Shown: positions 454 through 57,366 of the stretch, piece by piece
Layout: every line of letters begins with the position of its first letter
Position numbering within the stretch: the stretch's first letter is position 1
Assembly: GCA_035542975.1 (NCBI GenBank)
Contig: DATKKK010000040.1
Span: 13,857 to 77,856 of the forward strand
DNA from: Candidatus Bathyarchaeia archaeon
GTDB taxonomy: Archaea; Thermoproteota; Bathyarchaeia; Bathyarchaeales; Bathycorpusculaceae
Length of the DNA: 64,000 nt
Direction: 5' to 3'
The notes under the pieces: model-generated
The model's database searches: none
Seen by the model: the letters and a program-made list of their open reading frames with translations, nothing else
Told to the model about the DNA's origin: nothing
Program-made: the position numbers and the translations under genes

Positions 454-1467
454 TCACTTTCCCTGCGGGGATTCTAAGGATATAAACGTGATTTGAGGCG
501 GTTCTTCCGGCGCGTTTCTCGGCACTCGTGCTGGATAGCGTAGTCGTATTGAACGTTTTTCGGGTCCGGCTATGGTGCCCTCTAGCAGCACGTATGGTCC
601 TTTGATTTCGCCGTATCGTGTGAAGCCTCCTTTTGGCGTTACCTCTTTGCCATCCGCGCCTATTTTGAGGATGCGCTTGTTGTATTCTGTTCTTTGATGA
701 TGCCCCATTTGTCCTGCTCTTGGGGTGCTGTAGGTTACGTGGTGTGGGTTCCATGGACCTAGAGTGGCGATGCCTCTTTTTGTTTTTCTTCCTTTAGCTT
801 GAAGTATGGTTACTCCCCAACGTTTTACAGGTCCCTGGAAGCCTTTTCCTGTGGACACTGATGCTACGTCGACATATTGTCCATCTTTAAACATTTCTGC
901 GGGAGGCACAGTCTTTCCAAGCAAGCCTTTTGCGTATTCAAATTGTTGTTGGATGGTGCCGCCGCCTATTTCTATCTCAGCTAAGTCAGGTTTTTTCTTT
1001 GGCACGCTGGTTTGTCTAGGTTGAGTTGTGGCTATGACGCGGATGTTGGTTATCTTTGCCAAGTTTTCTTCGATTTTTTTGAGGTTTTCATCTGTCTTGA
1101 ATTTTTCTGGAATCGTGAAAACTCGTTCCAAGTCATCTGGCGGATCTTTAAGCCAAGCTTCTGTTAAAGTGCGTAAGCCGTATGACGTTTTTGTGTATGC
1201 TTTTACTGCACAGATGAGTATTGGAGGGGTTTCTAGGACGGTGGCGGAGTGCATGACTTCTTTGCCGAAGTCTGGTGAGCGTTTTTTATCTTCTATCGTA
1301 AAAACATGCGTCATTCCCGCTTTGTAGCATATAAAACCTAATAATCTAGGGTTTGCCGCTTCGATTTTCGGCCAGAAACGGATTCGAGCCAACAAGTGTT
1401 TGGCGCGTTTCCTAGGTAAATATGCGAGCGAACCATGTCTTGGAGCGTGTGTTTTTCGGTGTCCCAT
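454..1467 (-). CDS. rpl3: 50S ribosomal protein uL3 (L3)
   Basis: 337-aa ORF, MGHRKTHAPRHGSLAYLPRKRA..., with TGKGFQGPVKRWG and QMGHHQRTEYNKRI motifs typical of archaeal uL3. Followed by uL4. Confidence 0.95.
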   Translation of the reverse strand: MGHRKTHAPRHGSLAYLPRKRAKHLLARIRFWPKIEAANPRLLGFICYKAGMTHVFTIEDKKRSPDFGKEVMHSATVLETPPILICAVKAYTKTSYGLRTLTEAWLKDPPDDLERVFTIPEKFKTDENLKKIEENLAKITNIRVIATTQPRQTSVPKKKPDLAEIEIGGGTIQQQFEYAKGLLGKTVPPAEMFKDGQYVDVASVSTGKGFQGPVKRWGVTILQAKGRKTKRGIATLGPWNPHHVTYSTPRAGQMGHHQRTEYNKRILKIGADGKEVTPKGGFTRYGEIKGPYVLLEGTIAGPEKRSIRLRYPARVPRNAPEEPPQITFISLESPQGK

Positions 1468-1613
1468 TGTTTCTCCGCTTCGCGTCTTCTAGCAATGAGA
1501 ACGATAAGTTATAAACATTACCGTTAAGATGCAATTTATCGTCTTTCCACGCGGATAAAACAGATGACGTTTATCGTTTTTCAGGCTCAAGCTTGGCTTT
1601 ATTAATCTGTTTT

Positions 1614-1733
1614 TGGCGGGTCCGCGGGGATTTGAACCCCGGTTCTCCGGCTTTCTTCCTCACATCGTCCGGAGGCTTGCGCACCACGTAGCCTTGTGGT
1701 TCGGCGCCTTAATCCGTGCTGGGCAACGGACCC
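1614..1733 (-). tRNA. tRNA gene, 120 nt with encoded CCA, carrying ~30-35 nt of extra internal sequence (intron/s); isotype unresolved
   Basis: Read on the minus strand. Acceptor GGGTCCG/CGGACCC plus discriminator G plus CCA. T-arm CGGGG-TTCAAAT-CCCCG. D-arm GCC-CAGCACGGATTAA-GGC (3-bp stem, long loop, class II-like). The middle ~60 nt contains helices CCAC/GTGG and CTCCGG/CCGGAG, but I could not place a canonical anticodon loop or a 37/38 bulge-helix-bulge intron. Confidence 0.75.
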
Positions 1734-1812
1734 ATGTTATTGTAGAATACACTTTAGCGCAACCAGAATTAACTATTACCCCTTTGCTTCGAGGTTTAAA
1801 TGTCAATGTTTG

Positions 1813-1834
1813 GTTCAACCTATTTATAGGGGGG
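1813..1834 (+). repeat. Copy 1 of the promoter-like repeat GTTSAACCTATTTATAGGGGGG
   Basis: gttcaacctatttatagggggg. Near-identical to 52543-52564 and, in reverse orientation, to 14381-14402. Lies 62 nt past the stop of the minus-strand DUF1805 gene and 80 nt upstream of the tRNA 5' end. Confidence 0.6.
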
Positions 1835-1895
1835 CTAGAGTAGTTTTTGAGCCCCTGGTCAATCTGTAGCTGTCTACCTGTCAACAAGCATGTCT

Positions 1896-2189
1896 TCAAC
1901 ACATACGTTTTAACGCGTCTACCCCTTTCATTCCTGCCTCAACTCCGAAGTTTTTCGCTTTAGAAGTTGCAGCCTTAACCTGTCCGTTAAGCACGTCTTC
2001 GAACGTTTTTACTCCGCTGACTACTGCGGCAGTTACGCCAAGCTTTTCTGCAGTTTCCATGTTCAGAAAACCGCACATTACGAAGCCTTTTTCTGCAATA
2101 ATCACGAGCAAAGGGGGTGAATCAGGAAGCTCAACCTTCACACCTAAACAGTTCTTATCATCAACCTTCACAGGTGCCACACTAATCAT
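1896..2189 (-). CDS. DUF1805 (YunC-like) small protein
   Basis: Real start is taken at the internal ATG (2189): MISVAPVKVDDKNCLGVKVELPDSPPLLVIIAEKGFVMCGFLNMETAEKLGVTAAVVSGVKTFEDVLNGQV... matches my recollection of the ~100-aa YunC/DUF1805 family. The upstream 43 codons of the track ORF look non-coding. Confidence 0.7.
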   Translation of the reverse strand: MISVAPVKVDDKNCLGVKVELPDSPPLLVIIAEKGFVMCGFLNMETAEKLGVTAAVVSGVKTFEDVLNGQVKAATSKAKNFGVEAGMKGVDALKRMC

Positions 2190-2266
2190 ACACAAACACC
2201 TCGTCCACAGATTTTGTCCCGTCCAGCTTAAATAAGAATTGCTAACATAAAAAAACAGAAGCCAAC

Positions 2267-2866
2267 ATGCTAACCAAACTAAAACAGCAAATCCAACAGA
2301 TGCTTGCAACCGAAGCAAGAATAGCCCATAGATTACGGCTGACGCCGAACAGGATAAGCATCATAGGCGTAATCCTAGCCCTTCTCGCCTCACTCGCATA
2401 TATGGAATGGCAAAGCAACAAGTTCTACTTGCTAGTTGCGGCTGTTTTGTTGTTGTTATCGGGTTTTTGTGACGCCCTAGATGGCGTGGTAGCTAGGCTA
2501 TACCAGCAAGCAACGCCTTTCGGCGGTTTTCTCGACTCGTTATTAGACAGGTATGCCGACGCTGCAGTTTACTTGGGCATAATCATAAGCGGGTTGTGTG
2601 ATGTTCTATGGGGTTCAGTCGCCATCATCGGGTCTCTGCTCGTAAGCTACAGTCGAGCGCGAGCAGAAGCAGCAGGGATAAAAATGGAGTCCGTAGGATT
2701 GGCAGAAAGAGCCGAACGCATAATCATTCTATTCATAGCCACTTTGGCAGCATTTATCTGGCAACCACAAACAATAATGAATTACAGCATGATTCTGCTT
2801 GCCATACTTTCAAACCTCACCGTTCTGCAACGAACCTATTACGCATACAAAAAATTGAGAAAATGA
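2267..2866 (+). CDS. CDP-alcohol phosphatidyltransferase family (archaeal polar-lipid headgroup synthase)
   Basis: Signature DALDGVVARLYQQATPFGGFLDSLLDRYAD (D-G-x2-A-R-x8-G-x3-D-x3-D) in a multi-TM 199-aa protein. Confidence 0.85.
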   Translation: MLTKLKQQIQQMLATEARIAHRLRLTPNRISIIGVILALLASLAYMEWQSNKFYLLVAAVLLLLSGFCDALDGVVARLYQQATPFGGFLDSLLDRYADAAVYLGIIISGLCDVLWGSVAIIGSLLVSYSRARAEAAGIKMESVGLAERAERIIILFIATLAAFIWQPQTIMNYSMILLAILSNLTVLQRTYYAYKKLRK

Positions 2867-2873
2867 GAAACTG

Positions 2874-3167
2874 CTAGAATCGTCTTCTCTTCATGCGCAT
2901 GTGCCGCTCGCTTTCCGCTCTGACTTTCACGATGCCCCTGTGAACCGCACACGAAACACAGTAATATTTCGTGTCTACAGGCGCAGCGATATACGTGCCC
3001 TTCTGGCGAAGCTCCTTCGCCAACTGAGCATCAACGATCGAAAGCCTGCGAGTTGATTTCTTAGCTTTGTCCCGCGGCACCATCGAACCGCAACCAGCGC
3101 ACTGTACAGTACCGCCGCTACCTTTACTGCCTTTGGATCTTCCACGACTTTTTCGTTTAAACGGCAA
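2874..3167 (-). CDS. rps26e: 30S ribosomal protein eS26
   Basis: MPFKRKSRGRSKGSKGSGGTVQCAGCGSMVPRDKA...YYCVSCAVHRGIV: basic N-terminus plus the CxxC...CxxC zinc ribbon typical of eS26. Confidence 0.85.
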   Translation of the reverse strand: MPFKRKSRGRSKGSKGSGGTVQCAGCGSMVPRDKAKKSTRRLSIVDAQLAKELRQKGTYIAAPVDTKYYCVSCAVHRGIVKVRAESERHMRMKRRRF

Positions 3168-8508: not shown

Positions 8509-9302
8509 ACGCTCAAAAGCTTTCTCATGAACTGACTATTGAAGAATCATTAACGATAACTTTAAACCTTTACGCAAACAATTTTGTAAAATTTTTCATA
8601 CCAATGCTCGTAGCTTCGTTAGTTTCTGGAGTCTCGAGCGCTATGCTTTCTGATTATTTTTCGTCAGTAGAGTTTCCTGAGGTTGGAGCGGGAACAGAAG
8701 CTTGGAATTTGTTTTTTAGCAACATAGTCGTACTGTTAATTGCTTCTCTCGCCTTCTTTGTAGTTGCGTTAATAGCAAGCGCGATAGCAGAAGGCGTGTG
8801 CATCAAGAACACTTCGAACCTCGTAGAAAAAAGAGCAACAAACACTGGAGAAGCGTTAACTTTCACGGTTCACAAGCTTCTGCCACTATTGGCAGCCTCA
8901 ATAATCACTGGAATATTAATAGGAGTCGGTCTTGTTTTGCTAGTGGTGCCCGGAATAATTTTTGCCATTATGTTTTCTCTGGCAATTCCATCGATAATTA
9001 TTGAAAACGTTGGCGTTGCCGACAGCCTTTCCATGAGCAGAAAACTCGTCAGCAACCGTTGGTTGAAAACATTCGCTTTCTTCATAATAATCGGCGTCAT
9101 AATTCTGTTTGTCGCTGTAATTGCCATCTTTGTCGCAGGACCATTTGGAGCGTTTGGTTCACTCGCAAAAAACATGGTGAACAGCATTGTAACCGCTTTT
9201 GCCGGGCCAGTCGTGCCGATAGCAGTAACCGTATACTACTATTCTATGAAGGGAAGAAAGCAACAGCAGCAGGTTCCTCCTCCGCCGCCTCCACCTTTCT
9301 AG
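8505..9302 (+). CDS. Polytopic membrane protein with a Gln/Pro tail
   Basis: 265 aa, about 6 hydrophobic helices, ends ...KGRKQQQQVPPPPPPPF. TTG start overlaps the preceding TGA. Confidence 0.6.
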   Translation: MNAQKLSHELTIEESLTITLNLYANNFVKFFIPMLVASLVSGVSSAMLSDYFSSVEFPEVGAGTEAWNLFFSNIVVLLIASLAFFVVALIASAIAEGVCIKNTSNLVEKRATNTGEALTFTVHKLLPLLAASIITGILIGVGLVLLVVPGIIFAIMFSLAIPSIIIENVGVADSLSMSRKLVSNRWLKTFAFFIIIGVIILFVAVIAIFVAGPFGAFGSLAKNMVNSIVTAFAGPVVPIAVTVYYYSMKGRKQQQQVPPPPPPPF

Positions 9303-9311
9303 AAAGCTTGG

Positions 9312-9575
9312 TTATTCTCCTTTCAGAAGCCACTTCAACGGAATATCTTGAAAAGTCTTGTCAGGCAGCGTTCTTCTAATCGTCATCGGAAGAATCCCTG
9401 AATCAAGCTCCTTTAACGCTATGTCTATCGGGCCTGGAAAGCCTTCTGGCACTTCAACAAGTATAGGTGCACCCATAGATATCTGCAGGGCTCTAGCGCC
9501 GACTATTCTTGCTTTCTCGAAGCGTGTAAGCTTTGGAGGACCTACGAGGGTTTTTTTGTCTTTTTCAGACGTGTT
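9312..9575 (-). CDS. rpoK: RNA polymerase subunit Rpo6/RpoK; the reading frame lacks a canonical start codon
   Basis: Own translation: [87 protein letters not shown]. [21 protein letters not shown] is the Rpo6 core. The frame opens right after the thermosome TAG. The only ATG lies inside the conserved core, which is why the ORF track missed it. Confidence 0.75.
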
Positions 9576-11231
9576 CTAATATTCCCCCATACCCGGGTAT
9601 CCACCGCCCGGCGGCATGCCGCCTGGAGGCATAGGAGGACCCTTGGTTTTGCCAGCGGCGATTACATCGTCTATTTTCAGTATCATTGAAGCCGCTTCGG
9701 TTGCGGATTTTATTATTTGTTTTTTGACGGATAATGGTTCGAAGACTCCTGCTTCTTTCATGTCTTCTACTTTTCCGTCGTTAACTTCGATTCCAGCCCA
9801 GACGTCGCCTTTTTCGTGTCTTGCACGCAACTCAGAAAGGACGTCGATTGGGTCTAAACCAGCATTTTCTGTCAGCGTCATCGGGATAATTTCAAGCGCT
9901 TCCGCAAAGACTTTCACGGCTAATTGCTCTCTTCCAGGAAGGGTTTCCGCGTATTTCTTAAGCATCCGCGAAACTTCAAGTTCTGGCGCTCCGCCTCCCG
10001 CCACGATTTTTGGTTCTTCAAATAAATCTCTGATCACGCATAAAGCGTCATGTATTGATCTTTCTGCTTCGTCTATTATGCGTTCTGTTGCGCCTCTGAT
10101 GAGTATTGTAACGGCTTTGGGGTGTTTGCATCCTTCTATGAAAGTCATCTTGTCTTCTCCTATCTTGCGTTCTTCAACCAAGTTTGCATAGCCCAAATCT
10201 ACCGCGCTTATTGCTTCCAAGTTGGTGATTATCTTTCCGCCAGTGGCTTTCGAAAGCTTCTCCATGTCTGACTTCTTGATTCTTCTAACTGCAAGTATTC
10301 CTTTGCGAGCGAGGAAATGCTGAACCATGTCGTCAACGCCTTTCTGACATAGCACTACGTTCGCGCCAGCGGCAACTATCTTGTCAACCATCTGTCGGAG
10401 CATTTCCTCTTCCTGCTTGAGAAAGCCCTCCATCTGCTCTGGGCTTTCAATGTTGATTTTCGCGTCAAACTCGGTTTTCTCAATCTCAAGCGAAGCATCA
10501 AGCAATGCGATTTTGGCTTTCTCCACTCTCTTAGGCATTCCAGAATGTGAAACATCCTTGTCTAAGACGATTCCTTGAATAAGCTTGGTTTCTCTTGTTG
10601 ATTCGCCTGTTTTCTTTTCAACTTTAACGTCGTCCAAATCCACTTTATATTTACTGTCGCTTTTTTCTGCAACTGCCAGAATTGCTTTAACAGCCAAGTC
10701 GGCCAGATACTCTCGGTATTCGGCTACAAGTTTGCTCGCCATTGAAGTCATCGCGGCTTTTTTGGCGTATTCTTCCAAGTCTGCGCCTGTTGATATGGCT
10801 ATTTTCTCCAAGACTTGGAGTGCTTTTTCTGAGGCTTTTTTGTAGCCGTCGATTATTACGGTTGGGTGGACGTTTTTGTTGACCAATTCTTCTGCTTTGT
10901 TCAGCAGTTCTCCAGACACGATTACGGCGGTTGTGGTTCCGTCGCCTGCTTCGTTGTCTTGTGTTTTTGCGACTTCCACCATCATTTTTGCGGCTGGATG
11001 TTGAATGTCCATTTCGTCTAGGATGGTGCGTCCGTCGCTCGTTATGGTTATGTCACCGAAGCTGTCGACGAGCATTTTGTCCATACCTTTCGGGCCGAGA
11101 GCGCTTTTTACGGTTTCCGCCACTATTTTTGCGGCTTCTATGTTAGTGTGTTGCGCTTCTCTTCCTCGAGAGCGGTTTGAGCCTTCTTTTAGAACTAGAA
11201 CGGGTACTCCACCAGCTTGTTGAGATGACAA
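9576..11231 (-). CDS. ths: Thermosome subunit (group II chaperonin)
   Basis: 551 aa; ...[27 protein letters not shown]...GDGTTTAVI...VAGGGAPE... with a [15 protein letters not shown] tail. TTG start 9 nt after AAAGGAGGT. Confidence 0.95.
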
Positions 11232-44359: not shown

Positions 44360-45376
44360 TTAGAACAGTTTTGACAGCGGTCGTACCTTCAGCACGTCAA
44401 GGTTAACTAGGTTCGGCGGCTTTCTTCCTTCAAAGAACGAGACTAAGTTGTCAGCGACCATCTCGGACATTTTTGAACGAGTCTCCAGGCTTGCGCTTGA
44501 AATATGCGGCGCAACAACCACGTTCTCAAGCTTTAGCAACGGATTATCCATGGGCGTGGGTTCCTGTTCGAACACGTCGAGCCCTGCACCAGCGATTTTT
44601 CCTTCCTTCAAAGCCTCGTACAACGCTTTCTCGTCAACAACAGGTCCACGTGAATTATTGATAAGGTAGGCAGTTTTCTTCATGAGCTTGAGTTTCTCCG
44701 CGTTTATCAAGTGGTGTGTTTCTTTCATGAGTGGAACGTGTATGCTCACGTAATCTGATTCTTTCAAGAGGGTGTCAAGGTCAACTTTTTTGGCGTTAAA
44801 GTCCTTCTCGATTTCTGGTCTCGGCATGACATCGTAGAAGAGTATTTTCATGTTAAACCCCGTCGCTCTTTTCGCCACAGCGTATCCTATTCTTCCTGCG
44901 CCGACCACTCCTATTGTCGCGTTGAAAACGTCTCTGCCAGCCAGCATGTTTGGGTGCCAGCCGACCTTCCATTTGCCCCCACGAACGTACCTGTCTGCTT
45001 CAGCCACACGTCTTGCAACCGCCATGAGTAGAGCCCAAGCAAAATCCGCCGTGGTGTCTGTCAAGACTTCAGGCGTGTTCGTAACGTAGATTCCTCTTTT
45101 CGTGGCTTCAGCGATGTCTATGTTATCGAAGCCCACAGCCAACTGCGAAACAATCTTCAGTTTAGGCGCGGCATTGAAGACCTCGGCGTCTATCTTGTCA
45201 GACAAGAGCGAAGCCAAAGCGTCAACGTTCTTGGCTTTTTCGATAATTACGTTTTTCGGCGGCGGAGCGTATTCCGGCCAAACTTCCGTGTCAAAATGTT
45301 TTTTTATGATGTTTAAGCCTCTTTCCGGAAGCTCTCGAGTGACGTAGATTTTAGGTTTAGGCATACGGTTCACCAT
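44360..45376 (-). CDS. D-isomer-specific 2-hydroxyacid dehydrogenase (glyoxylate/hydroxypyruvate reductase type)
   Basis: ...GVVGAGRIGYAVAKRA...HVPL...NNSRGPVVDE...AGLDVFEQEP. Confidence 0.9.
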   Translation of the reverse strand: MVNRMPKPKIYVTRELPERGLNIIKKHFDTEVWPEYAPPPKNVIIEKAKNVDALASLLSDKIDAEVFNAAPKLKIVSQLAVGFDNIDIAEATKRGIYVTNTPEVLTDTTADFAWALLMAVARRVAEADRYVRGGKWKVGWHPNMLAGRDVFNATIGVVGAGRIGYAVAKRATGFNMKILFYDVMPRPEIEKDFNAKKVDLDTLLKESDYVSIHVPLMKETHHLINAEKLKLMKKTAYLINNSRGPVVDEKALYEALKEGKIAGAGLDVFEQEPTPMDNPLLKLENVVVAPHISSASLETRSKMSEMVADNLVSFFEGRKPPNLVNLDVLKVRPLSKLF

Positions 45377-45478
45377 TATTTGGTTGTTTGCGGCATTCTT
45401 TATTAGTCTTAATTCCGCGAATGCAATACTTTCATTATAACAGTTAAATAAGTTTTCGTAGAATCTGGCGCGCTTTGA

Positions 45479-48226
45479 CTATGGTCCTTTCTGTCCGTAA
45501 TGCGCTATTATTGTAACGAGATCGAGGATGTCAATTTTTCCATGTGGAGATGCTATATCTGCTTTCGAATTCCAGTTTGATTCTCCCAATGTGGAGCCAT
45601 ATATTCCTGATACTATGACTACATCTTGAATGTTAACGACTCCATCATTGTTCAAGTCGCCAAGTATCAGTGAAGCTCGAGTCAGAAACTCGCTTTGAGT
45701 AAGTTCACTATTCGAAGTGAAAATATATTCGAAGTTGCCATCACCATTTGGATCCACTCTAACGATAACACCTTTTTCACCACGAGAAAGAGCATTCCAA
45801 TCAATAGTGTATTGATAGATTACATCAGTTGTTACAGGGATCTCGATGGCAGTAAACGCAGAGAATTTTTGATTGTCGTCTTCTTCTGTCAGATTTCCTA
45901 AAAAGGCAGATAAATTGTATACACCAACATCAGTGCCTTTCAGAAAAACTTGGTAGTTGCCAGCAACAGGGAGAGGAATTTCTATTAATTGTGGAGAAAT
46001 CCCATGACCGCTATAAAATGCCTCAGGTATTTCGTTGACCTCTCGTTGGGTCATGAAGTCAAAACCTACACGTCTTCCTTTGCTATCCACAACCAACAGA
46101 TCTGCTGATGAATCTGCCATTACATGCAAAAACTTTTCGCAGAGAACAGTGGGTGCAGGTCCGGATGTTAATTCCATTCGGTCTATGCGCACTTCCGTAA
46201 GATCAATTGTCAGGTTGCCGTCAGAAACACTTTCACCCATGTCTGATACCTTTGCCCACGTATAGAGTTGTGCTTCGAAAATCCAACTGTACTTATGACC
46301 TACTTCAAGATTTAAGAGACCTTGAATAACGTATTGAGAATCATTGAAACTCTTTGAATCTCCACCATAACTGTCTAAGGACGCGAATTCTTGGTCTGAT
46401 TGATAGTGGTAAATGTCCAAATCCTCTTTCCAAATTTCTGTTGAAGTTGTCTCGTCGTAGACTCGAAGACTGGCGTTGAAAAACAACCCTTGGCTTATCG
46501 TGCTAGCTGAAAGTTTGGATGTGAAAGAGATAGCTGACCACGTTATAAGTCCATTGACATTGAATGTTGCTTTTGCTCTTGATTCCCCAAACCAATTATT
46601 GACCCACGAATCTTCAAATGCTACAGTTGCAAAAGCTCTGCTATCTCCTCCAAGGGCTGACCATGTCCGCGCTACAATCTTTCCTTTTCCACTTGACTCA
46701 TCAACCGCCAAATCATGCGACGCTTGTGCCGCTCCGAAGGATTCATGCCATCCTGTTCCAGGTGGTGTTGAAAGTTGAAAGGGTGGATTGAACGTTTTGA
46801 GGGCAGGTGTGGCGTTCAAGGAAATTGGGGTTGTGTGTGAAAGAGTGCCGCTGGTTCCTGTCACGTTTAGTGTATAGACTCCAAGCGTTGCTGTGTTTTC
46901 AAGGGCGACCGTCAGAGTGGAGGTTTTTGAGCCTCCTATTTCGGGTGTAACAAACTGAGCACTTAATGATGCCGTAATCTTTGATGGTGTACCTGTTAGG
47001 TCTAGTTCGACTTGGTGGTTAAAGCCGAACATTGAGGTTATGGTAATAGTTGATGCACTTGAATTGCCTTGCTGAATTGATAACAAAGCTGGAAAAGCCG
47101 TGACTAAGAAGTCTGGCGTTGGTTTCCATGGGTTTGTGAGAGGGTAGCGATCTTTGTTTATTCCGCCTATTTTGTAGGAATGATCTAATATGCCATCACT
47201 GCCTGTTTCATTTTGATACGATCCGCTATATGAGTCCACATCTGCATAGTCACTCCAATAGTTTCCGCCAGATGGATAGTCGTTGTCCCAAGCGTTTGCA
47301 TAAGCTCCAGCCTGAGATTCTAAACGCACTTGTTGCGAGTTACTTACTAGATTGTTATGGTAAATGTTGTTGTTGTATGGATATTCAGGTCCGTAGAGCC
47401 AGATACCCTTTGAATTGTGCGTTATATTGTTTCCAAAAATGTTATTGTCCCAGCAACATGCAAGCCAGATTCCGTAACCACTGTTTGCAAACGTATTTCC
47501 GAAGATATTATTGTGCATAGATACCAACACTATGATGGCCTCTTCACTGCCTGCTACATTGTTTCCATAAAGGAGGTTGTAATTCGAAAAACTCCACACC
47601 GCGATGCCTCGATTATTGCTTTTTATAGTGTTGCCATATACGATGTTGTGTTTCGAGCTGGAAATAAAGAGACCTGCACTATTACTTGCTATTGTGTTTC
47701 CAGAGACACTATTGTCTGAAGAAGAACCAAAAGCGATGCCGTAATCCCTGTTTGCTGTTATGTTGTTTCCACAAATACTATTACTTGAAGAGGAAGCAAA
47801 GTAGATGCCTTCATTATTGTTTGTTATGTTATTTCCAGAAATGAGGTTGCTTGAAGAGGTTCTAAAATCGATGCCATAGTTAAAACCTTTTATGTTCACG
47901 TTTTGAATTGTCACATTGTTTATTCCGGATAAATAGAATCCGTCCCCGCTTCCAGAGCCTTGAAGGATGTAGCCGTTTCCGTCAATTTTTATGTTTTTTT
48001 TCTCAACCACAATAGAACCATTAATGTTATCAGCGAAGGTGTAGGTAATATTGTCGACGGTTGAGATGGGAATGCCTGAAGGGTCGATGCTTCCATCCAC
48101 CCTAATATAAATGACTCCACTCGCTCTGACCGGCTCAACCTTGAAAGCTACTTCCAAAATTCCAATAATAAGAATAAATAGAATTATCCCGGAAGTGGCT
48201 CTCTTAACCAAGTCTTCTCTCTCCAA
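45479..48226 (-). CDS. Large secreted/surface protein: signal anchor, parallel beta-helix (PbH1/NosD-like) repeats, Ig-like and beta-rich middle, C-terminal dockerin-like module
   Basis: 915 aa, TTG start. GIILFILIIGILEVAF anchor. About 10 repeats of the type NNITNNNEGIYFASSSSNSICGNNITANRDYGIAFGSS. C-terminus GDLNNDGVVNIQDVVIV...GKIDILDLVTIIAHYGQKGP. Confidence 0.8.
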   Translation of the reverse strand: MEREDLVKRATSGIILFILIIGILEVAFKVEPVRASGVIYIRVDGSIDPSGIPISTVDNITYTFADNINGSIVVEKKNIKIDGNGYILQGSGSGDGFYLSGINNVTIQNVNIKGFNYGIDFRTSSSNLISGNNITNNNEGIYFASSSSNSICGNNITANRDYGIAFGSSSDNSVSGNTIASNSAGLFISSSKHNIVYGNTIKSNNRGIAVWSFSNYNLLYGNNVAGSEEAIIVLVSMHNNIFGNTFANSGYGIWLACCWDNNIFGNNITHNSKGIWLYGPEYPYNNNIYHNNLVSNSQQVRLESQAGAYANAWDNDYPSGGNYWSDYADVDSYSGSYQNETGSDGILDHSYKIGGINKDRYPLTNPWKPTPDFLVTAFPALLSIQQGNSSASTITITSMFGFNHQVELDLTGTPSKITASLSAQFVTPEIGGSKTSTLTVALENTATLGVYTLNVTGTSGTLSHTTPISLNATPALKTFNPPFQLSTPPGTGWHESFGAAQASHDLAVDESSGKGKIVARTWSALGGDSRAFATVAFEDSWVNNWFGESRAKATFNVNGLITWSAISFTSKLSASTISQGLFFNASLRVYDETTSTEIWKEDLDIYHYQSDQEFASLDSYGGDSKSFNDSQYVIQGLLNLEVGHKYSWIFEAQLYTWAKVSDMGESVSDGNLTIDLTEVRIDRMELTSGPAPTVLCEKFLHVMADSSADLLVVDSKGRRVGFDFMTQREVNEIPEAFYSGHGISPQLIEIPLPVAGNYQVFLKGTDVGVYNLSAFLGNLTEEDDNQKFSAFTAIEIPVTTDVIYQYTIDWNALSRGEKGVIVRVDPNGDGNFEYIFTSNSELTQSEFLTRASLILGDLNNDGVVNIQDVVIVSGIYGSTLGESNWNSKADIASPHGKIDILDLVTIIAHYGQKGP

Positions 48227-48317
48227 ATGATACTCAAGTTAGCCCAGATAGATAACACTTTTGAAACAATCTTCTATCGAATTGAAAAGAAGTTGCTTTT
48301 GTATTCACAACAAAATC

Positions 48318-48335
48318 CTAGTTGAGCTCAACTAG
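48318..48335. promoter_or_regulatory. Perfect 18-bp palindrome CTAGTTGAGCTCAACTAG in a divergent promoter spacer
   Basis: Seen directly, between the start of the 915-aa surface protein (48226) and the glycerate kinase start (48445). Confidence 0.5.
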
Positions 48336-48444
48336 TGCTCAAAATGTAGCGCGCGGCAGACTAAATAATCACATTGTTAAGTTTATTAGCATTAACTTAT
48401 TACACTTACGCATCAACCATGAAAAACCTTAACATGGGTTACAC

Positions 48445-49821
48445 ATGATAACGATAGAAAACAAACAACAACTCATCGAAAACGGCGAGACACCGTTAAA
48501 CCGAAAAGCCAGAAAGCTAGCTCTCGAAAGCTTCGAAGCCGCGTTGAACGCTGTTGACTCGAAGAAAATAGTAAAATCAAGGCTTCATCTGAAAGATTCG
48601 ATGCTCAAAGTGGACGGTTACTCTTTTGACTTGGAAAAATTTAAGCACGTTTACGTGGTGGGTGGTGGCAAAGCAAGTGGTTCGATGGCTGAAGGGTTGG
48701 AAGAGGTTTTAGGCAATCGGATAACGAAGGGAATCGTGAATGTGCCAAAGGGAAGCAAACTGAAAACACGAACAATATTGCTCCACGAAGCCAGTCATCC
48801 GATGCCTGATGAACATGGCGTGGACGGCACGCGTCGCATTGTGGAGATTGCCGAGCAAGCAGAAAAAAACGATTTGATTATTTGTTTGATTTCAGGTGGC
48901 GGCTCAAGCCTCATGCCGTTGCCACGTGGAGGAATCTCGATCTCCGACAAGAGGCTGATTACAGACGCTCTGCTCAAGAGCGGAGCCACGATAAACGAGA
49001 TTAACACTGTTCGCAAACACACATCTGATTTTAAAGGCGGCTGGCTTGCGAAAAAAGCCTATCCCGCTACCATCCTGAACTTGATTCTTTCGGATGTGGT
49101 TGGCGACCCGCTAGATTTTATTGCCTCAGGTCCTACGGTTCCTGATTCCACGACATTTAGTGACGCGTTGAATATTCTGAAAAAGTACAAGTTATGGGAG
49201 AAAACGCCAGAATCAATAAAGAATGTGCTGCTGGAAGGAGAAAAAGGCATAATTCCTGAAACGCCTAAAGCAGGTGACGAAGCCTTCAAGAATGTTGTCA
49301 ATGTTGTCATCGGCAACAACAGAGTCGCAGGTTTAGCAGCTTGTCAACAAATGAAAACTTTGGGTTTAAACACGTCATTGTTGACGGCGACGATGGAAGG
49401 CGAGGCTCGCCAAGTGGCAAAACTGCTAGCATCAATCGCCCGTGAAGCTTCTATTTCAAACAATCCTGTTGCGAAACCAGCAGGCATAGTTGCAGGCGGA
49501 GAAACGACCGTGACGGTTGTTGGGAAAGGTCGGGGCGGCAGGAATCAGGAGCTGGCTTTGGCTGTCGCGTTGAAGTTGAAAGGTTTGGATGGTGTGGTTC
49601 TGGCTTCGCTGAGCACGGATGGTGTTGACGGTCCGACGGATGCGGCTGGAGCGATAGTGGATGGAAAAACGCTTGCCCGAGCAGAAAAGATGGGGTTAAA
49701 CGCGGAAAAGTTTCTAGCTAACAACGATTCATTCACGTTCTTTTCCAAGCTTGGTAACCTTATCTTTACTGGGCCTACAGGCACGAACGTCAACGACATC
49801 ACCGTGATGGTGTCCGTGTAG
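48445..49821 (+). CDS. Glycerate 2-kinase (MOFRL / DUF4147 family)
   Basis: ...VYVVGGGKASGSMAE...LISGGGSSL...(MOFRL) ...GGETTVTV.GKGRGGRNQELALA...LASLSTDGVDGPTDAAGAIVD. Confidence 0.85.
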   Translation: MITIENKQQLIENGETPLNRKARKLALESFEAALNAVDSKKIVKSRLHLKDSMLKVDGYSFDLEKFKHVYVVGGGKASGSMAEGLEEVLGNRITKGIVNVPKGSKLKTRTILLHEASHPMPDEHGVDGTRRIVEIAEQAEKNDLIICLISGGGSSLMPLPRGGISISDKRLITDALLKSGATINEINTVRKHTSDFKGGWLAKKAYPATILNLILSDVVGDPLDFIASGPTVPDSTTFSDALNILKKYKLWEKTPESIKNVLLEGEKGIIPETPKAGDEAFKNVVNVVIGNNRVAGLAACQQMKTLGLNTSLLTATMEGEARQVAKLLASIAREASISNNPVAKPAGIVAGGETTVTVVGKGRGGRNQELALAVALKLKGLDGVVLASLSTDGVDGPTDAAGAIVDGKTLARAEKMGLNAEKFLANNDSFTFFSKLGNLIFTGPTGTNVNDITVMVSV

Positions 49822-52457: not shown

Positions 52458-52542
52458 ACCTAAAACCGCAAATCATGTTCAAGGATTAACCGAAATATCA
52501 TCGTGCTTGAGCAAATTCCAAGCATTGGAATTAGAAGCATCA

Positions 52543-52603: not shown

Positions 52604-53128
52604 CTAGATTTTGTCGCTTTTGTTCAAGTCTTTAAGCCTATTAATTCCGTCTATCTCTTTTATAAACGCAGCCACACTTTTCGGAATCAGCTTCTCCCAA
52701 CTTTCATCTCTGATCATTTTTTCTCTGATCTGGGTTGAAGAGTAAACTTTCCTGTCATAAAACTCGACTTTCTTAACCTTGTAGCCAGCTTCCATGAACA
52801 GTCGATGCGTCAACGGCTCATTAGAAAAAACTACTTGAAACTTTGGCGTGTAGCCTTCGAGCGCTGAAACCCACATCATGTGCAGACGCACGTCAGGAAC
52901 AGGCACAATCCAAACTCGATCGCCATCAATTTTAGCCTCCTCCAAAGCCCTGCGAACCATGACCAACCGTTCGCCAGCCGTAAACGGGTTAGCAAGCTCA
53001 TGACTGTACTGAGCACTGCCGATGACGATTACAGCTTCGTCAACTTCTTCCAGAATCTTCTTCACTACGCTGAGATGTCCAAGGTGAAAAGGCTGAAACC
53101 TCCCGACATAAAGCCCACGCTTAACCAT
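52604..53128 (-). CDS. nadM: Nicotinamide-nucleotide adenylyltransferase (archaeal NadM type)
   Basis: Start taken at the ATG at 53128: MVKRGLYVGRFQPFHLGHLSVVKKILEEVDEAVIVIGSAQYSHELANPFTAGER. Confidence 0.85.
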   Translation of the reverse strand: MVKRGLYVGRFQPFHLGHLSVVKKILEEVDEAVIVIGSAQYSHELANPFTAGERLVMVRRALEEAKIDGDRVWIVPVPDVRLHMMWVSALEGYTPKFQVVFSNEPLTHRLFMEAGYKVKKVEFYDRKVYSSTQIREKMIRDESWEKLIPKSVAAFIKEIDGINRLKDLNKSDKI

Positions 53129-53168
53129 CAAACACCACTGTTTCCACGTACTAGCCGCCGAGCTTTTA

Positions 53169-53762
53169 TCATTTGCGATAATCAACCTTTTTCAGCACAA
53201 GCTCAACAGGAAAAACCTGCAACTTCCCATCTTTCAAAGCAACCTCCCGTTTAGAAGTGTAGCCCCTCTTCTCCCGCCTCAACAACGCAACCTTCATGGG
53301 TAAACCACCACCATATCCGCCTAGACTAAAATCAGAACAAACAACCCTATGGCACGGAACAAGCGGCGCAAAAGGATTCCTAGCATTAACGTTGCCAACT
53401 GCTCTTGCGCCTCCACCAACCGCCTTGGCAATCAGACCGTATGAAGTGGCATAGCCTATTGGAATCGAATACACTGCTCCAAGCACTTTCCCAGTATACT
53501 TCGGCAAATGTTCCATAGCAAAAGAAAAACGTGAAGAAACATCCTTTCCATCATACACATTCTTCAAAACAGCAACCACACGGTTACCGAAAGCCGAAGG
53601 CTTTTCAACTTTCTGAAAAGTAATCTTGCGTGGCATGCTTCTCAGAAGGCCTTCCTCGGTTTCCTTTCTATCTGGATCAAACCACGTTGCAAAAATCTTT
53701 TCCCTTTTGTAGGCAACTCCAAACCAGACGTTTTCAGCTTCTTTGACGTAAACCTCTACCAA
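53169..53762 (-). CDS. ogt: Methylated-DNA--protein-cysteine methyltransferase (Ogt/MGMT family)
   Basis: C-terminal domain ...ATSYGLIAKAVGGGARAVGNVNARNPFAPLVPCHRVV (PCHRV active site). TTG start. Confidence 0.8.
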   Translation of the reverse strand: MVEVYVKEAENVWFGVAYKREKIFATWFDPDRKETEEGLLRSMPRKITFQKVEKPSAFGNRVVAVLKNVYDGKDVSSRFSFAMEHLPKYTGKVLGAVYSIPIGYATSYGLIAKAVGGGARAVGNVNARNPFAPLVPCHRVVCSDFSLGGYGGGLPMKVALLRREKRGYTSKREVALKDGKLQVFPVELVLKKVDYRK

Positions 53763-53790
53763 ACAGCTTCACCCGTCACAGTATCTGTAG

Positions 53791-53810
53791 GACATTAAGT
53801 TTAATAGTTT
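53791..53810 (+). repeat. Left 20-nt direct repeat GACATTAAGTTTAATAGTTT (putative att core)
   Basis: Perfectly repeated at 55991-56010. The preceding GTA is also shared. Confidence 0.85.
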
Positions 53811-53956
53811 AGCGTTGGCGGCATCGCCCACAAATTCCCCTCTTTCTGGCGCGCGCAACCGAGTATTAGAAAATCGACTTAAAGACAGAAAAATGGGTAT
53901 TTTACTGAGCTATTATGGTGAGGTAAAACTCTATCATAAAAAGAAGAAAAAAAGGG

Positions 53957-55240
53957 CTATTGGTGTTCTCCGTAATGCGCTGTACAGGTGACTAGGTCGA
54001 GTATGTCTATTTTTCCATATGGAACAACTAAGTCTGCTTCTGGAATCCAGTTCCGCTCTCCTTCTTTACAGCCGTAAATTGACGCTATGGCAACTATGTC
54101 GAGTATGTTAACGGCATCATCGAAATTTACATCTCCAAATAGGAACTTTGGGACACCCTCGACACTACTTGGAAGGTCCACGGCACAATCTAATCCGTTC
54201 CACGGTGGCCAGGGGTTCCCTGGGTGTGGGAACCCGCTGATGGTTAAGTCGATTATGCCTAATTGAAGTGCATCAACTGTGAATGACGGGGGAAGTTCGC
54301 ATGTAGCGTTGAAGTGCACTACGGCTATGCGTCCCTGCCCCTCGACTGGTGTGTGGGTTCCGTCGGCAGCTGGAAGTCCGATGAAGCATATCCAAGCCAA
54401 GCCCGTTGCGTCGTTGGTTTCGTTTTTGATTATGAATACTCCCCCCGGCCAAAATGAAGCGAACCAGCTGTCAGGGTCAACTGTAACGCCTAGCCCATGT
54501 AAAAGAGTTGAGTTGTAAGTCAACTTGAACTCGAAGCCTGCAACATCCCATTCTGGGCTTAGGTCTCCGTGGAGTAGATTCATCAGCGGTATGTTCACAT
54601 TGAATGTGTGGTTATAGACAGGGTGATAGGTGGTTGGTGATACTTTGAGCAATGGTTCTGGCGAGTAGATGTGTTCTAGTGGAAGAATTGTAACCTGCAT
54701 GCTAACGTCGTCATGGGGTATTGGGTTACCACTAGCGTCTGCGAGTGTGGCTGAGGTTATTTGTACATTGAAAACAGCCGCGTCTTCACCTGGAGCTGGT
54801 TGCTTTACGATCACAAACTCCATGTCGAAGCAACTTGCTGTACCAGTGAATGGTGCAGCAGGTGACAATGAAGCTTCAGCAACCCAGTACATGGTTCCAG
54901 CTGCGGAACCCGGCATGTTTGCTGTTTCGTCAACGTCGTTTTTGAGTGGGGTCGTAGGCGAGTTTAGCGGTAGGCGCTTGTTGTGGCCAACGTAGTTTAT
55001 CCATTCTGGGTTCCAGCCAATCTGGATGTCAACACCGTAGAGTCCAGTGACGTTTATCCATCCGTCAATCGTGAAGTGAGTTCCAACGCATGAGGCCGAT
55101 CCGAAGACTTCTGTGGTAAGACCTGTTGTGTGATCTCTGATTTTGAATGATGGGTTTGGTCCTGCTTTGGTGATTTGTATGCCAATCATTAAGGCACTCA
55201 CTTGAAGCATTATTATCATACATAATGTTTTCTTCGACAA
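53957..55240 (-). CDS. Secreted protein with two cohesin-like modules and a C-terminal dockerin-like module
   Basis: Start taken at the TTG at 55240 ((M)SKKTLCMIIMLQVSALMIGIQITKA signal peptide; ATG alternative at 55219). Two ~150-aa beta-rich modules. C-terminus GDVNFDDAVNILDIVAI...GKIDILDLVTCTAHYGEHQ. The upstream 74 codons of the track ORF look non-coding. Confidence 0.7.
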   Translation of the reverse strand: MSKKTLCMIIMLQVSALMIGIQITKAGPNPSFKIRDHTTGLTTEVFGSASCVGTHFTIDGWINVTGLYGVDIQIGWNPEWINYVGHNKRLPLNSPTTPLKNDVDETANMPGSAAGTMYWVAEASLSPAAPFTGTASCFDMEFVIVKQPAPGEDAAVFNVQITSATLADASGNPIPHDDVSMQVTILPLEHIYSPEPLLKVSPTTYHPVYNHTFNVNIPLMNLLHGDLSPEWDVAGFEFKLTYNSTLLHGLGVTVDPDSWFASFWPGGVFIIKNETNDATGLAWICFIGLPAADGTHTPVEGQGRIAVVHFNATCELPPSFTVDALQLGIIDLTISGFPHPGNPWPPWNGLDCAVDLPSSVEGVPKFLFGDVNFDDAVNILDIVAIASIYGCKEGERNWIPEADLVVPYGKIDILDLVTCTAHYGEHQ

Positions 55241-55588
55241 TTTCCTCTCCCCTACTAATATCTGTAGTTCAATCAATACATAAAAATTGCGGATAAATGT
55301 TCTATATAACCTCGCATACGCAGATATCTGGCTTTTGAAACAAAGTTCTATCATGGCTGCATCATCTAAGGCGTAAACGTTCGTTAGCGCGCGCGTCGTC
55401 ATGGTGTTAAAATATATAGTGTTGGGATAAATAGTGAGAGGTAAAAGGACGTGAACGCACAAGCTAACATAATTGCATTAACGTATCCCGAAAACATGGC
55501 AACCCAAGGATGATTACGGTTGCTAAGGAAAGCATCGACTTGCTTATGGCTATGTCGAAGATTCATGAATGTACATCTTTTGCCCTAG

Positions 55589-55970
55589 GAGAACGCTTAC
55601 GATGCAGCTTTGTACTCCGTGCGCAAGATAATTGCGAAGAAGGCGAATAGGCTGCAATACCTAAAGATACATTTCCACACCTTCAGACACTTCCGAGGAA
55701 CCTTCGGCGTGTAGAACGGCGTGCCGCTTCCCGACATGCAATACAAACTTGGTCATAAAACTTTGATGGCAACTGGAAAATACGTTCATTGGGTGCAAGG
55801 AACTTTCCCACCCGACAAACAATAACTACAAATTCGCAGCCGTAGACACGCTTGAGGCTGTGGGCAAACTTGTCGAAACTGGTTGGCAATACGTTACGAA
55901 CATGGACGACGGTGGAAAGATAAAGGAGTCTTTCGGCGTCCAGCATGATAAACAATGTCGCCACAAGTAA
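55589..55970 (+). pseudogene. Tyrosine recombinase/integrase fragment (C-terminal catalytic half; stops and a frameshift)
   Basis: Own translation: ...IAKKANRLQYLKIHFHTFRHFRGTFGV*(TAG 55712)NGVPLPDMQYKLGHKTLMATGKYVHWVQGTFPPDKQ*(TAA 55823), then shifted frame ...YKFAAVDTLEAVGKLVETGWQYVTNMDDGGKIKESFGV... to 55970. HxxR and LGH-x9-Y box II motifs are present; the N-terminal half is absent. Confidence 0.7.
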
Positions 55971-55990
55971 ACTATTACGCACACGAGTAC

Positions 55991-56010
55991 GACATTAAGT
56001 TTAATAGTTT
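55991..56010 (+). repeat. Right 20-nt direct repeat GACATTAAGTTTAATAGTTT
   Basis: Identical to 53791-53810; lies 25-34 nt upstream of the psmB start. Confidence 0.85.
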
Positions 56011-56034
56011 GTCCGTGCATAACAACGCAAAAAG

Positions 56035-56664
56035 GTGTCAAGCATGGAAAAGCAGTCACAACAAGGTGAATACATGTGGATTCCTGGCGCCACTACTGTG
56101 GGCGTAGCAGTCAAAAGCGGTGTCATATTAGCCTCTGAAAAACGAGTCTCATACGGCAACATGATCATGAGCAGAGGAGGCAAAAAAGTGTTCAAGATAA
56201 CCGACCGCATAGGCGTAGCGTGCGCTGGACTAGTTTCCGACATGCAAATCCTATCACGCGAAGTAGAAGCATACACCAGCCTGTTCAACCTTGACGTTGG
56301 CAGACAAATATCCGTGCGTTCAGCAGCCAAACTCATGTCAAATCTTCTCTTCGGCAGACGACTCGCACCATTAATCACGAACACTATCGTCGGAGGAGTA
56401 GACAGCGAAGGCCCATCCATCTACGTACTGGACGTTCTAGGCTCAGTAATCCCCGACAAATACGCGGTCGTGGGTTCTGGAACAGAAATCGCCATAGGAG
56501 TGGTCGAGGAAGGATACAAAGAAGACATGAACCTCGAAGAGGCAAAGGAACTGGTCACGAGAGCAATTAAATCCGCCATAAGCCGAGACGTCATGAGCGG
56601 TGACGGAATAGACTTTCTCACAATAACCAAGGAAGGCACGGCTGAAGAATCGATAAAATTCTAA
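56035..56664 (+). CDS. psmB: Proteasome beta subunit
   Basis: Propeptide, then GATTVGVAVKSGVILASEKRVS... (Thr1 context), ...GLVSDMQ..., ...VGSG. GTG at 56035 or ATG at 56044. Confidence 0.9.
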   Translation: MSSMEKQSQQGEYMWIPGATTVGVAVKSGVILASEKRVSYGNMIMSRGGKKVFKITDRIGVACAGLVSDMQILSREVEAYTSLFNLDVGRQISVRSAAKLMSNLLFGRRLAPLITNTIVGGVDSEGPSIYVLDVLGSVIPDKYAVVGSGTEIAIGVVEEGYKEDMNLEEAKELVTRAIKSAISRDVMSGDGIDFLTITKEGTAEESIKF

Positions 56665-56739
56665 AACCGCAACTCTTTTTGAAAAGCTTAAACCCTGTTC
56701 GCAACAAACAATCATTCACCCTCTAACGGTGAAAAAAGG

Positions 56740-57366
56740 TTGTCATTCGAGCTAACCCAGAAAGAAGGCGAAACACTAGTTAGGCTCGCACGAAAGGCTG
56801 TAGAAGAATACCTGAAAACCCGAAAGCAAATAAATGTTCCAGCAGACATCCCCAAGAAATTTCTGCAGCCATGCGGAGTATTCGTCACTATAAACAGTAT
56901 CAAAAAAGGAGAAAAAGAACTGAGAGGATGCATCGGCTACCCGTATCCAACTGCACCACTAGCCCAAGCAGTCATCGACTCAGCTATCAACGCCGCCACC
57001 CAAGACCCTCGTTTCGAACCGCTCACGTTAGCTGAGCTTAACAACGTGGTTTTCGAAGTGAGTGTGCTCACACCGCCTGAGGTGGTGGAAGCAAAGAAGG
57101 CAAATGAGTATCCTTCTAAAATCAAGGTTGGAAAAGACGGGTTGATCGTTGAAAGAGGCATGTTCAAAGGGTTGCTGTTGCCTCAGGTGCCTGTTGAGTG
57201 GGAATGGAATGAAGAAGAATTCCTATGCCAATGCAGCATCAAAGCAGGCTTACCGCCCGATTGCTGGCTTATGAACGGCACCAGAATCTACAGGTTTCAA
57301 GCCATAATCTTTGAAGAGAAAACACCTAAAGGCGAAATCGAAAGCAAACCCCTCGGCGGGAAATAA
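56740..57366 (+). CDS. AMMECR1-domain protein
   Basis: ...PCGVFVTINSIKKGEKELRGCIGYPYPTAPLAQAVIDSAINAATQDPRFEPL...LLLPQVP...; TTG start. Confidence 0.85.
   Translation: MSFELTQKEGETLVRLARKAVEEYLKTRKQINVPADIPKKFLQPCGVFVTINSIKKGEKELRGCIGYPYPTAPLAQAVIDSAINAATQDPRFEPLTLAELNNVVFEVSVLTPPEVVEAKKANEYPSKIKVGKDGLIVERGMFKGLLLPQVPVEWEWNEEEFLCQCSIKAGLPPDCWLMNGTRIYRFQAIIFEEKTPKGEIESKPLGGK

Follow-up and report, generated by a model that had tools for sequence, protein, structure and literature searches.

How did a gene for a secreted protein come to lie, together with the debris of an integrase gene, between two copies of a 20-nucleotide (nt) sequence in the narrow spacer of two divergent housekeeping genes? 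The question is raised by a 2.2-kb unit between ogt and psmB in a 64-kb stretch of DNA from Candidatus Bathyarchaeia archaeon (NCBI GenBank assembly GCA_035542975.1, contig DATKKK010000040.1, positions 13,857 to 77,856), hereafter called the window. We conclude, with a probability of about 0.88, that the unit is a decayed mobile element, which integrated site-specifically into the ogt/psmB promoter, subsequently underwent internal deletion and decay, and retained its cargo gene. A preliminary description of the same DNA had proposed integration into this spacer with duplication of the attachment (att) core, for which we found support in empty sites, in a match of the integrase fragment to Pfam family PF00589, and in relatives integrated at the same site. 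Proviruses with an integrase are known from Bathyarchaeia (PMC10848311), and among thaumarchaeal integrated elements 15 of 68 targets are intergenic (Krupovic et al. 2019, PMC6563490).

Filled and Empty Sites at the ogt/psmB Locus

The 20-mer GACATTAAGTTTAATAGTTT occurs as an exact repeat at 53791-53810 and 55991-56010, 2,200 bp apart, as originally described. No further copy exists in the window even when three mismatches are allowed, with none expected from shuffled sequences. With one mismatch the repeat extends to 24 nt (GTA[G/C]GAC..., repeat family D4); the preceding GTA, which the preliminary description had counted as shared, is present at both copies, but one differing base stands between it and the 20-mer.

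We compared the locus with other loci, designated by L-numbers, of which L001-L080 are the 80 reference-genome loci whose psmB is closest, nearly all metagenome-assembled genomes of Bathyarchaeia. Their psmB products share 75-84% protein identity with that of the window, and the exact window product is present on contig k141_1455996 of ENA ERZ27256600. A search with ogt retrieved relatives closer than the reference set, namely L165, L166, and L167, in all of which ogt and psmB are adjacent with a single 20-mer, corresponding to the left flank of the window joined through one repeat to its right flank. These empty sites read ...CACAGTATCT(G/C)TAG-GACATTAAGTTTAATAGTTT-GTCCGTGCATAAC..., with the right flank also given as GTCCGTGCATAACAACGCAAAAAGGTG, and the reconstructed empty-site sequence is ...CTGTAGGACATTAAGTTTAATAGTTTGTCCGTG.... 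The ogt product of L166 is 97% identical in amino acid sequence, with DNA identities of 97.5% for the flank bearing ogt and 94.9% for that bearing psmB; the 126-kb contig L165 shows ~91% DNA identity and full synteny on both sides, and the ogt of L167 is 75% identical. When L166 is aligned with the window, the first BLAST segment ends at 53810 and the second starts at 55987, and their overlap in L166 is exactly the 24-nt repeat. The preliminary description had predicted an empty site with one copy of the 20-mer in a spacer of 250-300 nt; the single copy was found, but the spacer measures 72 nt to GTG and 81 nt to the ATG of psmB.

The filled state recurs in a second sample (L082, JGI 3300032829) at 99.8% identity, with an identical pseudogene and just two adjacent substitutions within the 2.2 kb. 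The locus is polymorphic for the presence of the unit, being filled in the window and L082 and empty in L166, L165, and L167. Because L082 is filled with the identical pseudogene and close relatives are empty, the insertion is lineage-specific, postdates the split from L166, and is stable in its lineage. The features of the locus are, in window coordinates:

53169-53762, minus strand: ogt, O6-methylguanine-DNA methyltransferase family, left host flank (PF01035, E = 5.5e-24)
53787-53810, plus strand: attL, left copy of the direct repeat (perfect 20-mer at 53791-53810, 24 nt with one mismatch)
53811-53956, no strand: non-coding left arm, with a small palindrome GGCGGCATCGCC and (CG)4 at 53849-53856
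53957-55240, minus strand: cargo gene, TTG start, 427 amino acids with a signal peptide (open reading frame, Pfam, structure model), with two cohesin-fold modules (residues ~30-185 and 195-362) and then a dockerin-like segment at the C-terminus (residues ~366-427)
55241-55447, no strand: upstream region of the cargo gene and probable deletion junction, with the promoter, a 21-nt motif, and (CG)4 at 55387-55394
55448-55968, plus strand: tyrosine-integrase pseudogene, corresponding to residues 251-409 or later of the 415-residue integrase of L019
55969-55977, plus strand: putative arm-type site, an inverted copy AAACTATTA of the core's right half, TAATAGTTT (inverted repeat I2)
55987-56010, plus strand: attR, right copy of the direct repeat and presumed native psmB promoter (repeat search, psmB upstream alignment)
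56044-56664, plus strand: psmB, proteasome beta subunit, right host flank (PF00227, E = 1.8e-53)

The Pfam matches bear out the identities first given to the flanking genes. The gene order at the locus is nmnat, ogt (minus strand), psmB, and a gene of the AMMECR1 type, the last two on the plus strand. As to the start of psmB, for which 56035 and 56044 had both been named, the ATG at 56044 with its ribosome-binding site AGGTG is best placed, whereas the GTG at 56035 falls within that site. No tRNA gene lies anywhere in the window, and integration targeted to a tRNA gene was rejected on this ground; an Rfam search of 53000-56800 found no RNA family.

The Repeat Coincides with a Conserved Block Upstream of psmB

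The repeat holds the TATA-like sequence noted in the preliminary description, an octamer TTTAATAG. At the empty site it occupies the centre of the spacer, with 37 nt to the start of ogt and 36 nt to the ATG of psmB. In the filled site, the octamer is found at 53800-53807 in attL, 37 nt from the ogt start codon, and at 56000-56007 in attR, 36 nt upstream of the psmB ATG; the DNA left of attL is collinear with L165, L166, and L167. Because the core was duplicated, each flanking gene has kept its putative promoter at the native distance.

In ~40 of the 80 Bathyarchaeia genomes, ogt and psmB are divergent neighbours 69-208 nt apart, and one copy of the motif (G)ACATTAAGTTTAATAG(G/T)TTG occurs per spacer. 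Aligning the regions upstream of psmB placed the motif in 77 of the 80 genomes, with its end 33-39 nt before the psmB ATG in 74. The positions of an 18-nt block, ATTAAGTTTAATA(G/A)(G/T)TTG (55994-56011 in the window), are 70-100% conserved, 12 of them at 97% or more, within an otherwise unconserved spacer. This block holds the TATA-like octamer and the near-palindrome ATTAA-GT-TTAAT, and is followed at the right distance by the ribosome-binding site AGGTG and the ATG. Near matches away from psmB are very rare in 1.4 Mb of related loci. The preliminary description had considered that the 20-mer might prove to be a genome-wide promoter word; with only two copies in the window and its specificity for the conserved psmB promoter, this can be dismissed. 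Because of its position and its conservation across Bathyarchaeia, we read the repeat as the probable promoter of psmB. The conservation of the 18-nt block is unusually strong for an archaeal promoter and, together with the near-palindrome, suggests an additional regulator-binding site.

Only one inverted repeat, a weak one of 23 nt with 78% identity (I2), was found near the ends of the element, and 17 nt separate the arm copy AAACTATTA belonging to it from the palindromic core ATTAA-GT-TTAAT. Copies of the right half of the core, 8-10 nt long, stand beside the integrase stop codon and 17 nt from the palindrome in L019, L085, and the window alike. The arm copy co-varies with the core, AACCTATT accompanying AATAGGTT in L019 and L085, and AAACTATT accompanying AATAGTTT. 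The copy at 55969-55977 thus has the appearance of a putative integrase-binding arm-type site.

A Truncated and Frameshifted Integrase Gene

The stitched translation of ~55448-55968 matches PF00589 with 28.8 bits at a cut-off of 27.1, in agreement with the recombinase assignment of the preliminary description. Aligned with the intact 415-residue integrase of L019, the pseudogene covers residues 251-409 at 39-45% identity, starting just past the Arg-I motif, and retains HTFRH (HxxR), LGH (second His), and the tyrosine in KYVHW. The alignment agrees with the HTFRH and LGH...Y motifs and the missing N-terminal half reported earlier. With Arg-I absent, the catalytic set (R, K, HxxR, H/W, Y) is incomplete; no open reading frame remains, and the N-terminal 250 residues left no trace anywhere in the window. 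The lesions listed in the preliminary description require correction: the TAG at 55712 is in frame, but the TAA at 55823 is reached only in a frame already left, and there are at least three frameshifts rather than one, near 55490, 55580, and 55795, as judged by eye against L087 and L019. The 3' end of the pseudogene lies 22 nt before attR. We also considered the split integrase genes of SSV type as the cause of the missing N-terminal half, and rejected them since integrated relatives have whole genes.

The Integrase Family and Other Elements at the Same Site

As a protein query, the stitched pseudo-integrase returned two weak matches only; the intact L019 protein and a small family alignment worked, and a metagenome scan with this alignment gave 80 family members. 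Among these and L019, the best matches of the pseudogene are L087, L019, L085, and L086, three of which sit at the ogt/psmB site. The intact integrase relatives that the preliminary description had suggested looking for elsewhere are thus found at this very site, in L019, L087, and L085.

In L019, the intact integrase gene (PF00589, 62.4 bits) is followed by 45 nt, GACATTAAGTTTAATAGG, and psmB. Upstream of it, an Orc1/Cdc6-like ATPase and a large protein without assignment are encoded, and two open reading frames look by eye like the methylase and the helicase subunit of a type III restriction-modification system. The element is located on contig CAVTAO010000003.1, upstream of position ~1,404,000. 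No ogt lies within 10 kb in L019, which therefore represents a presumably large integrated element. L087, whose integrase is 54% identical to that of L019, shows the same arrangement of integrase, 48 nt, motif, and psmB. L085 (60% identical to L019) has the integrase, the inverted motif, and then ogt, the element being flipped with its integrase beside attL. Comparing L085:1549-1700 with L019:9913-9975, we observed 60%-identical integrases beside one core in opposite orientations, and in both the arm motif (A/G)CAACCTATT holds the same place with respect to the integrase gene. Being near-palindromic, the core may permit insertion either way round. The motif is absent beside the integrase genes of L086 (56%) and of the 77 members with at most 49% identity to L019, and no convincing repeat was found to flank L086.

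The family combines an N-terminal zinc ribbon of the IS1/IS1595 type, a XerA-like catalytic domain, and a conserved C-terminal extension (...KLIETGW...FRKPK). In L019, L085, and L087, the integrated genes are full-length, with the att site 45-50 nt past the stop codon. Because these integrated genes are whole, the family is, to judge from its gene layout, of the non-partitioning rather than the SSV type.

Further elements occupy the same promoter. L044 has a 9.4-kb insert between ogt and psmB (L044:501-9969), bounded by GACATTAAGTTTAATGGGTT and TCATTAAGTTTAATAGGTTG, with a gene for a rolling-circle-type Rep (8997-9872, minus strand), beta-helix/dockerin proteins (1363-3056), and palindromic GGAGA..TCTCC near both ends; its beta-helix protein ends in a Pfam-significant dockerin, and an integrase is absent from the element. 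L010 holds a 1.1-kb remnant with a C-terminal integrase fragment read towards ogt; at their right ends, this remnant and L044 are homologous. Because L044 and L010 hold further elements at the ogt/psmB promoter, this promoter is a recurrent integration hot spot across the class.

These relatives bear on whether the repeat could instead be a target-site duplication arising from transposase or casposase activity, or the product of illegitimate recombination or of a segmental duplication of the promoter, with the integrase fragment being incidental. The insert is indeed flanked by direct repeats, there is weak inverted-repeat similarity near its ends (I2), and a second insertion in the window, described below, has merely an 8-nt repeat without a recombinase. 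However, 20-24 nt is far longer than a typical target-site duplication, and neither a transposase nor a Cas1 gene lies between the repeats. Moreover, at least five further genomes show use of this sequence, and in three of these cases an intact integrase from the same clade ends 45-50 nt from it; the orientation of the integrase and its spacing to the core are conserved. We consider such an origin highly improbable.

Enlarged ogt-psmB gaps in ~20 relatives were also considered as possible elements and rejected: most hold ordinary co-directional genes of 226 and 428 amino acids and one motif copy. At L002:8322-10001 and L041:4834-6339, the 428-residue gene is preceded by ATGATTAAGCTTAAT, a diverged near copy of the psmB promoter ATGATTAAGTTTAAT, which hints that older gene gains at this locus may also have duplicated the promoter. 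Two other gaps, L047:5508-9992 (4.5 kb) and L078:4156-9992 (5.8 kb), are without a duplicated motif; the former contains, by eye, an IS1-like zinc-finger transposase-type open reading frame, and the latter unassigned open reading frames. In L165, nmnat and a SAM_HAT gene are separated by a 3.5-kb insertion of its own (L165:11227-14736), with genes for an IS240-type DDE transposase, MazE, an N6/N4 methyltransferase, and a DpnII-like protein, where the window (52464-52540) has none. The ogt-psmB locus is generally plastic.

The Cargo Gene Encodes a Protein with a Predicted Cohesin Fold

The cargo gene has its own TATA-like promoter at ~55300-55310 on the minus strand and 66 homologues, almost all of them unannotated Bathyarchaeia proteins. 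The preliminary description had called its product a secreted protein with cohesin-like and dockerin-like modules. A signal peptide is present, the cohesin fold is upheld by structure prediction and Foldseek, and the dockerin part has weaker support. The AlphaFold model has predicted local distance difference test (pLDDT) scores above 90 over residues 30-360 and below 50 in the tail, and the top Foldseek matches in the PDB are cohesin dyads and single modules (E = 4e-13 to 1e-5), including the Archaeoglobus cohesin 2xdh. The cargo itself stays below the Pfam threshold for Cohesin (PF00963), which 22 of 32 aligned family members pass. The modelled structure thereby confirms the cohesin fold. 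The C-terminal 60 residues contain, by eye, two dockerin-like repeats (DxNxDxxxxxxD) and match the Pfam dockerin family PF00404 below its cut-off (E = 0.08, 13.6 bits); a homologue, P0032, has a precomputed PF00404 (Dockerin_1) match, and the tail is probably a dockerin. The ratio of nonsynonymous to synonymous substitution rates (dN/dS) against the closest homologue, L083, is 0.34, because of which we regard the cargo as a presumably functional gene under purifying selection.

A Second Insertion and the (CG)n Tracts

The comparison with L165 revealed a second window-specific insertion at 45399-48389 (interior 45407-48381, ~2.98 kb) between the genes for a 2-hydroxyacid dehydrogenase (44360-45376, minus strand) and glycerate kinase (48445-49821, plus strand), which are adjacent in L165 and 38 other relatives. 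It is flanked by the 8-nt direct repeat TTTATTAG, a TATA-like octamer, and the sequence at its right junction, GTTAAGTTTATTAG, is similar to the att core of psmB. The only cargo is a gene for a secreted beta-helix protein of 915 amino acids (45479-48226, minus strand), the C-terminal dockerin of which closely resembles the tail of the cargo of the 2.2-kb element; no integrase gene was found in this insertion. The preliminary description had considered a small element with an extracellular scaffold-type gene as unusual, which it is less so, given that the second insertion and the L044 element also carry dockerin-bearing secreted proteins.

A 21-nt motif, CTTTTGAAACAA(NN)TTCTATC, has two copies in the window (48258-48278 and 55332-55352, 0.09 expected), each upstream of one of the two dockerin-protein genes, and may be a shared regulatory element. 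The (CG)4 tracts reported at 53849 and 55387 are present as well. The 8-mer GCGCGCGC occurs five times in the window (16507, 20391, 23298, 53849, and 55387) against 0.76 expected, and (CG)3-4 tracts lie between long open reading frames. GCGCGC at 45468 and 48349 stands just inside both ends of the second insertion, as does (CG)4 in the 2.2-kb element, and in the 20 kb alignable to L165 all four GCGCGC sites are in inserted DNA. Elsewhere, such tracts occur at L010:8958 (a junction), in L041 at 14 nt upstream of the left motif copy, and at L044:3856 and L044:4591, flanking a gene inside the L044 element. We found no flanks common to the tracts beyond TCTGGCGCGC at two left ends, and no mechanism behind them.

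One far-reaching interpretation would join these observations. The zinc-ribbon integrase clade, with a crossover in the promoter TATA/BRE (B recognition element), might shuttle integrase-less dockerin-gene units in trans. The psmB promoter, entered in either orientation, would be the primary target, and other TATA octamers would be used now and then. (CG)n just inside the ends would be the mark of these units; with every insertion the promoter would be doubled, keeping both neighbours expressed, and the 2.2-kb element and the insertion at 45407-48381 would be two products of one cassette-shuttling system. We regard this as speculative and quite improbable.

A Proposed History of the Element

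According to the history that we favour, a circular mobile element of Bathyarchaeia would have been integrated by tyrosine-recombinase recombination between attP and attB. The attB site would be the conserved promoter midway in the 81-nt divergent ogt/psmB spacer, presumably used in both directions, whose near-palindromic core ATTAA-GT-TTAAT overlaps the octamer TTTAATAG. With attP carrying the same ~20-24 nt, two identical copies, attL and attR, would have resulted, and the crossover or cleavage position is predicted to lie within ATTAAGTTTAATAG. The integrase gene would have been located at the end nearest to psmB and pointed towards attR, matching the layout of intact relatives. A later deletion would have removed the span from the upstream region of the cargo gene to codon ~250 of the integrase gene, after which the leftover fragment would have gained its stop and frameshifts, whereas the cargo stayed intact with its own promoter. 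Arrival of the cargo with the element would be the simplest history, because three close relatives are cleanly empty. The decay of the integrase, as already proposed, would have fixed the cargo in place. Because both att copies are intact, excision in trans by a related integrase is conceivable; the circle junction is predicted to read ...CACGAGTACGACATTAAGTTTAATAGTTTAGCGTTGG....

Several observations weigh against this history. Every sequence compared is a metagenome assembly, and position and conservation are the sole grounds for assigning the repeat a promoter role. No close intact relative of the element was found, the nearest integrase being only ~42% identical over the fragment, and at the DNA level the non-coding arms had no match except for the HFHTFRH-coding stretch. 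An excised circle or attP form was not found: the 20-mer core is without a match in IMG/VR, where the L019 integrase also has none and the integrase family is absent. For a dead element, failure to detect a circular form is no surprise. With a degenerate 18-mer, IMG/VR yielded 51 matches, which were discarded as chance matches in AT-rich viral contigs without an integrase or psmB. The closest homologue of the cargo, L083 (72% amino acid and 80% nucleotide identity), has ordinary chromosomal surroundings, and the homology spans only 53939-55340, stopping inside the element.

Because L083 is chromosomal and the homology stops inside the element, the cargo could have entered separately, as a gene cassette, possibly (CG)n-bounded, that was inserted into the already decayed element and replaced its interior. 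The homologous block does end well within the att repeats and has a (CG)4 tract on both sides, and the second insertion is an independent 3-kb gain of a dockerin gene with the same GCGCGC layout and the common 21-nt upstream motif. Against this, two insertions and a deletion would have to be placed on a short terminal branch, given the three cleanly empty relatives; no enzyme or mechanism that moves such cassettes was identified; and the L044 element shows dockerin proteins as passengers at this att site. A late entry of the cargo is hence unlikely in our view, albeit worth serious consideration.

The 2.2-kb unit could also have been integrated roughly as it is now, as an integrase-defective, att-flanked mini-element moved in trans and still excisable. 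Both att copies are perfect, the arm-type repeat beside attR is kept, and the insertion postdates the divergence from L166, whose flanks differ by ~3-5%; in addition, the second single-gene insertion of the window and the L044 element at the same att site are both without an integrase. However, a truncated and frameshifted integrase is what decay in place predicts, ~5% neutral divergence would be expected to bring a single stop codon and a few indels over 520 nt, the identical state is fixed in two samples, and neither a second copy, nor a circular junction, nor a donor was found. We consider arrival in the present form rather unlikely, and favour integration of a larger element followed by deletion and decay in place.

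Comparison with Known Systems

The element resembles archaeal elements of the non-partitioning pNOB8 type, in which attL and attR are direct repeats left by site-specific integration. In both, the integrase gene adjoins one att site and is intact once integrated (here in L019, L085, and L087), plasmid-like replication genes (Orc1/Cdc6-like, Rep) accompany accessory cargo, and intergenic targets are used. Unlike the catalogued pNOB8-type and thaumarchaeal elements, however, the target is the core of the psmB promoter instead of a tRNA gene or the 3' end of a gene, the host belongs to Bathyarchaeia, the integrase has a zinc ribbon and a C-terminal extension, and the window copy is a 2.2-kb remnant. 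Integrases of the SSV type (fuselloviruses) are likewise archaeal tyrosine integrases of mobile elements that create att direct repeats, but their integrase gene contains attP and is therefore cut in two by integration, whereas here the genes are whole and the att site lies past the stop codon.

By sequence, the catalytic domain is nearest to XerA and XerC/XerD (PDB 4a8e and 5hxy) with an active site of the R-H-R-H-Y type, with E-values of 1.7e-12 to 4a8e and 6e-18 to the XerA model NF040815. We rejected an identity with XerA, since the family scores 62-78 bits against NF040815, far under the equivalog cut-off of 220; the extra zinc ribbon and C-terminal tail, the location on mobile elements, and a promoter in place of a dif site also set it apart. 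The cis-mobilisable elements (CIMEs) of bacteria, e.g., those of streptococci, are att-flanked and have kept their cargo after losing a functional integrase. The 2.2-kb element shares this att-flanked, integrase-dead layout but differs in the domain of life and the integrase family, and mobilisation in trans would be hypothetical here. As for the cargo, the model matches the cohesin modules of non-cellulosomal archaeal cohesin/dockerin proteins such as the Archaeoglobus fulgidus cohesin 2xdh; unlike these, it falls below Pfam thresholds, and its dockerin-like tail is modelled with low confidence.

Implications

The distinctive point of the locus is the use of a conserved promoter as the target; otherwise, it is a fairly ordinary case of site-specific integration that involves no new principle. 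It constitutes a cleanly documented integration site in Bathyarchaeia, with the filled, empty, intact, and decayed states all seen, in an abundant sediment lineage whose mobilome is barely described. The 18-nt promoter target is as conserved as a tRNA gene, and its duplication spares both housekeeping genes. The locus also shows horizontal gain of surface cohesin/dockerin proteins, which persist once their vehicle is dead. Further elements in Bathyarchaeia could be sought with the att core and this integrase clade, which in principle might also serve as a tool for site-specific integration in uncultured or newly cultured members of this lineage.

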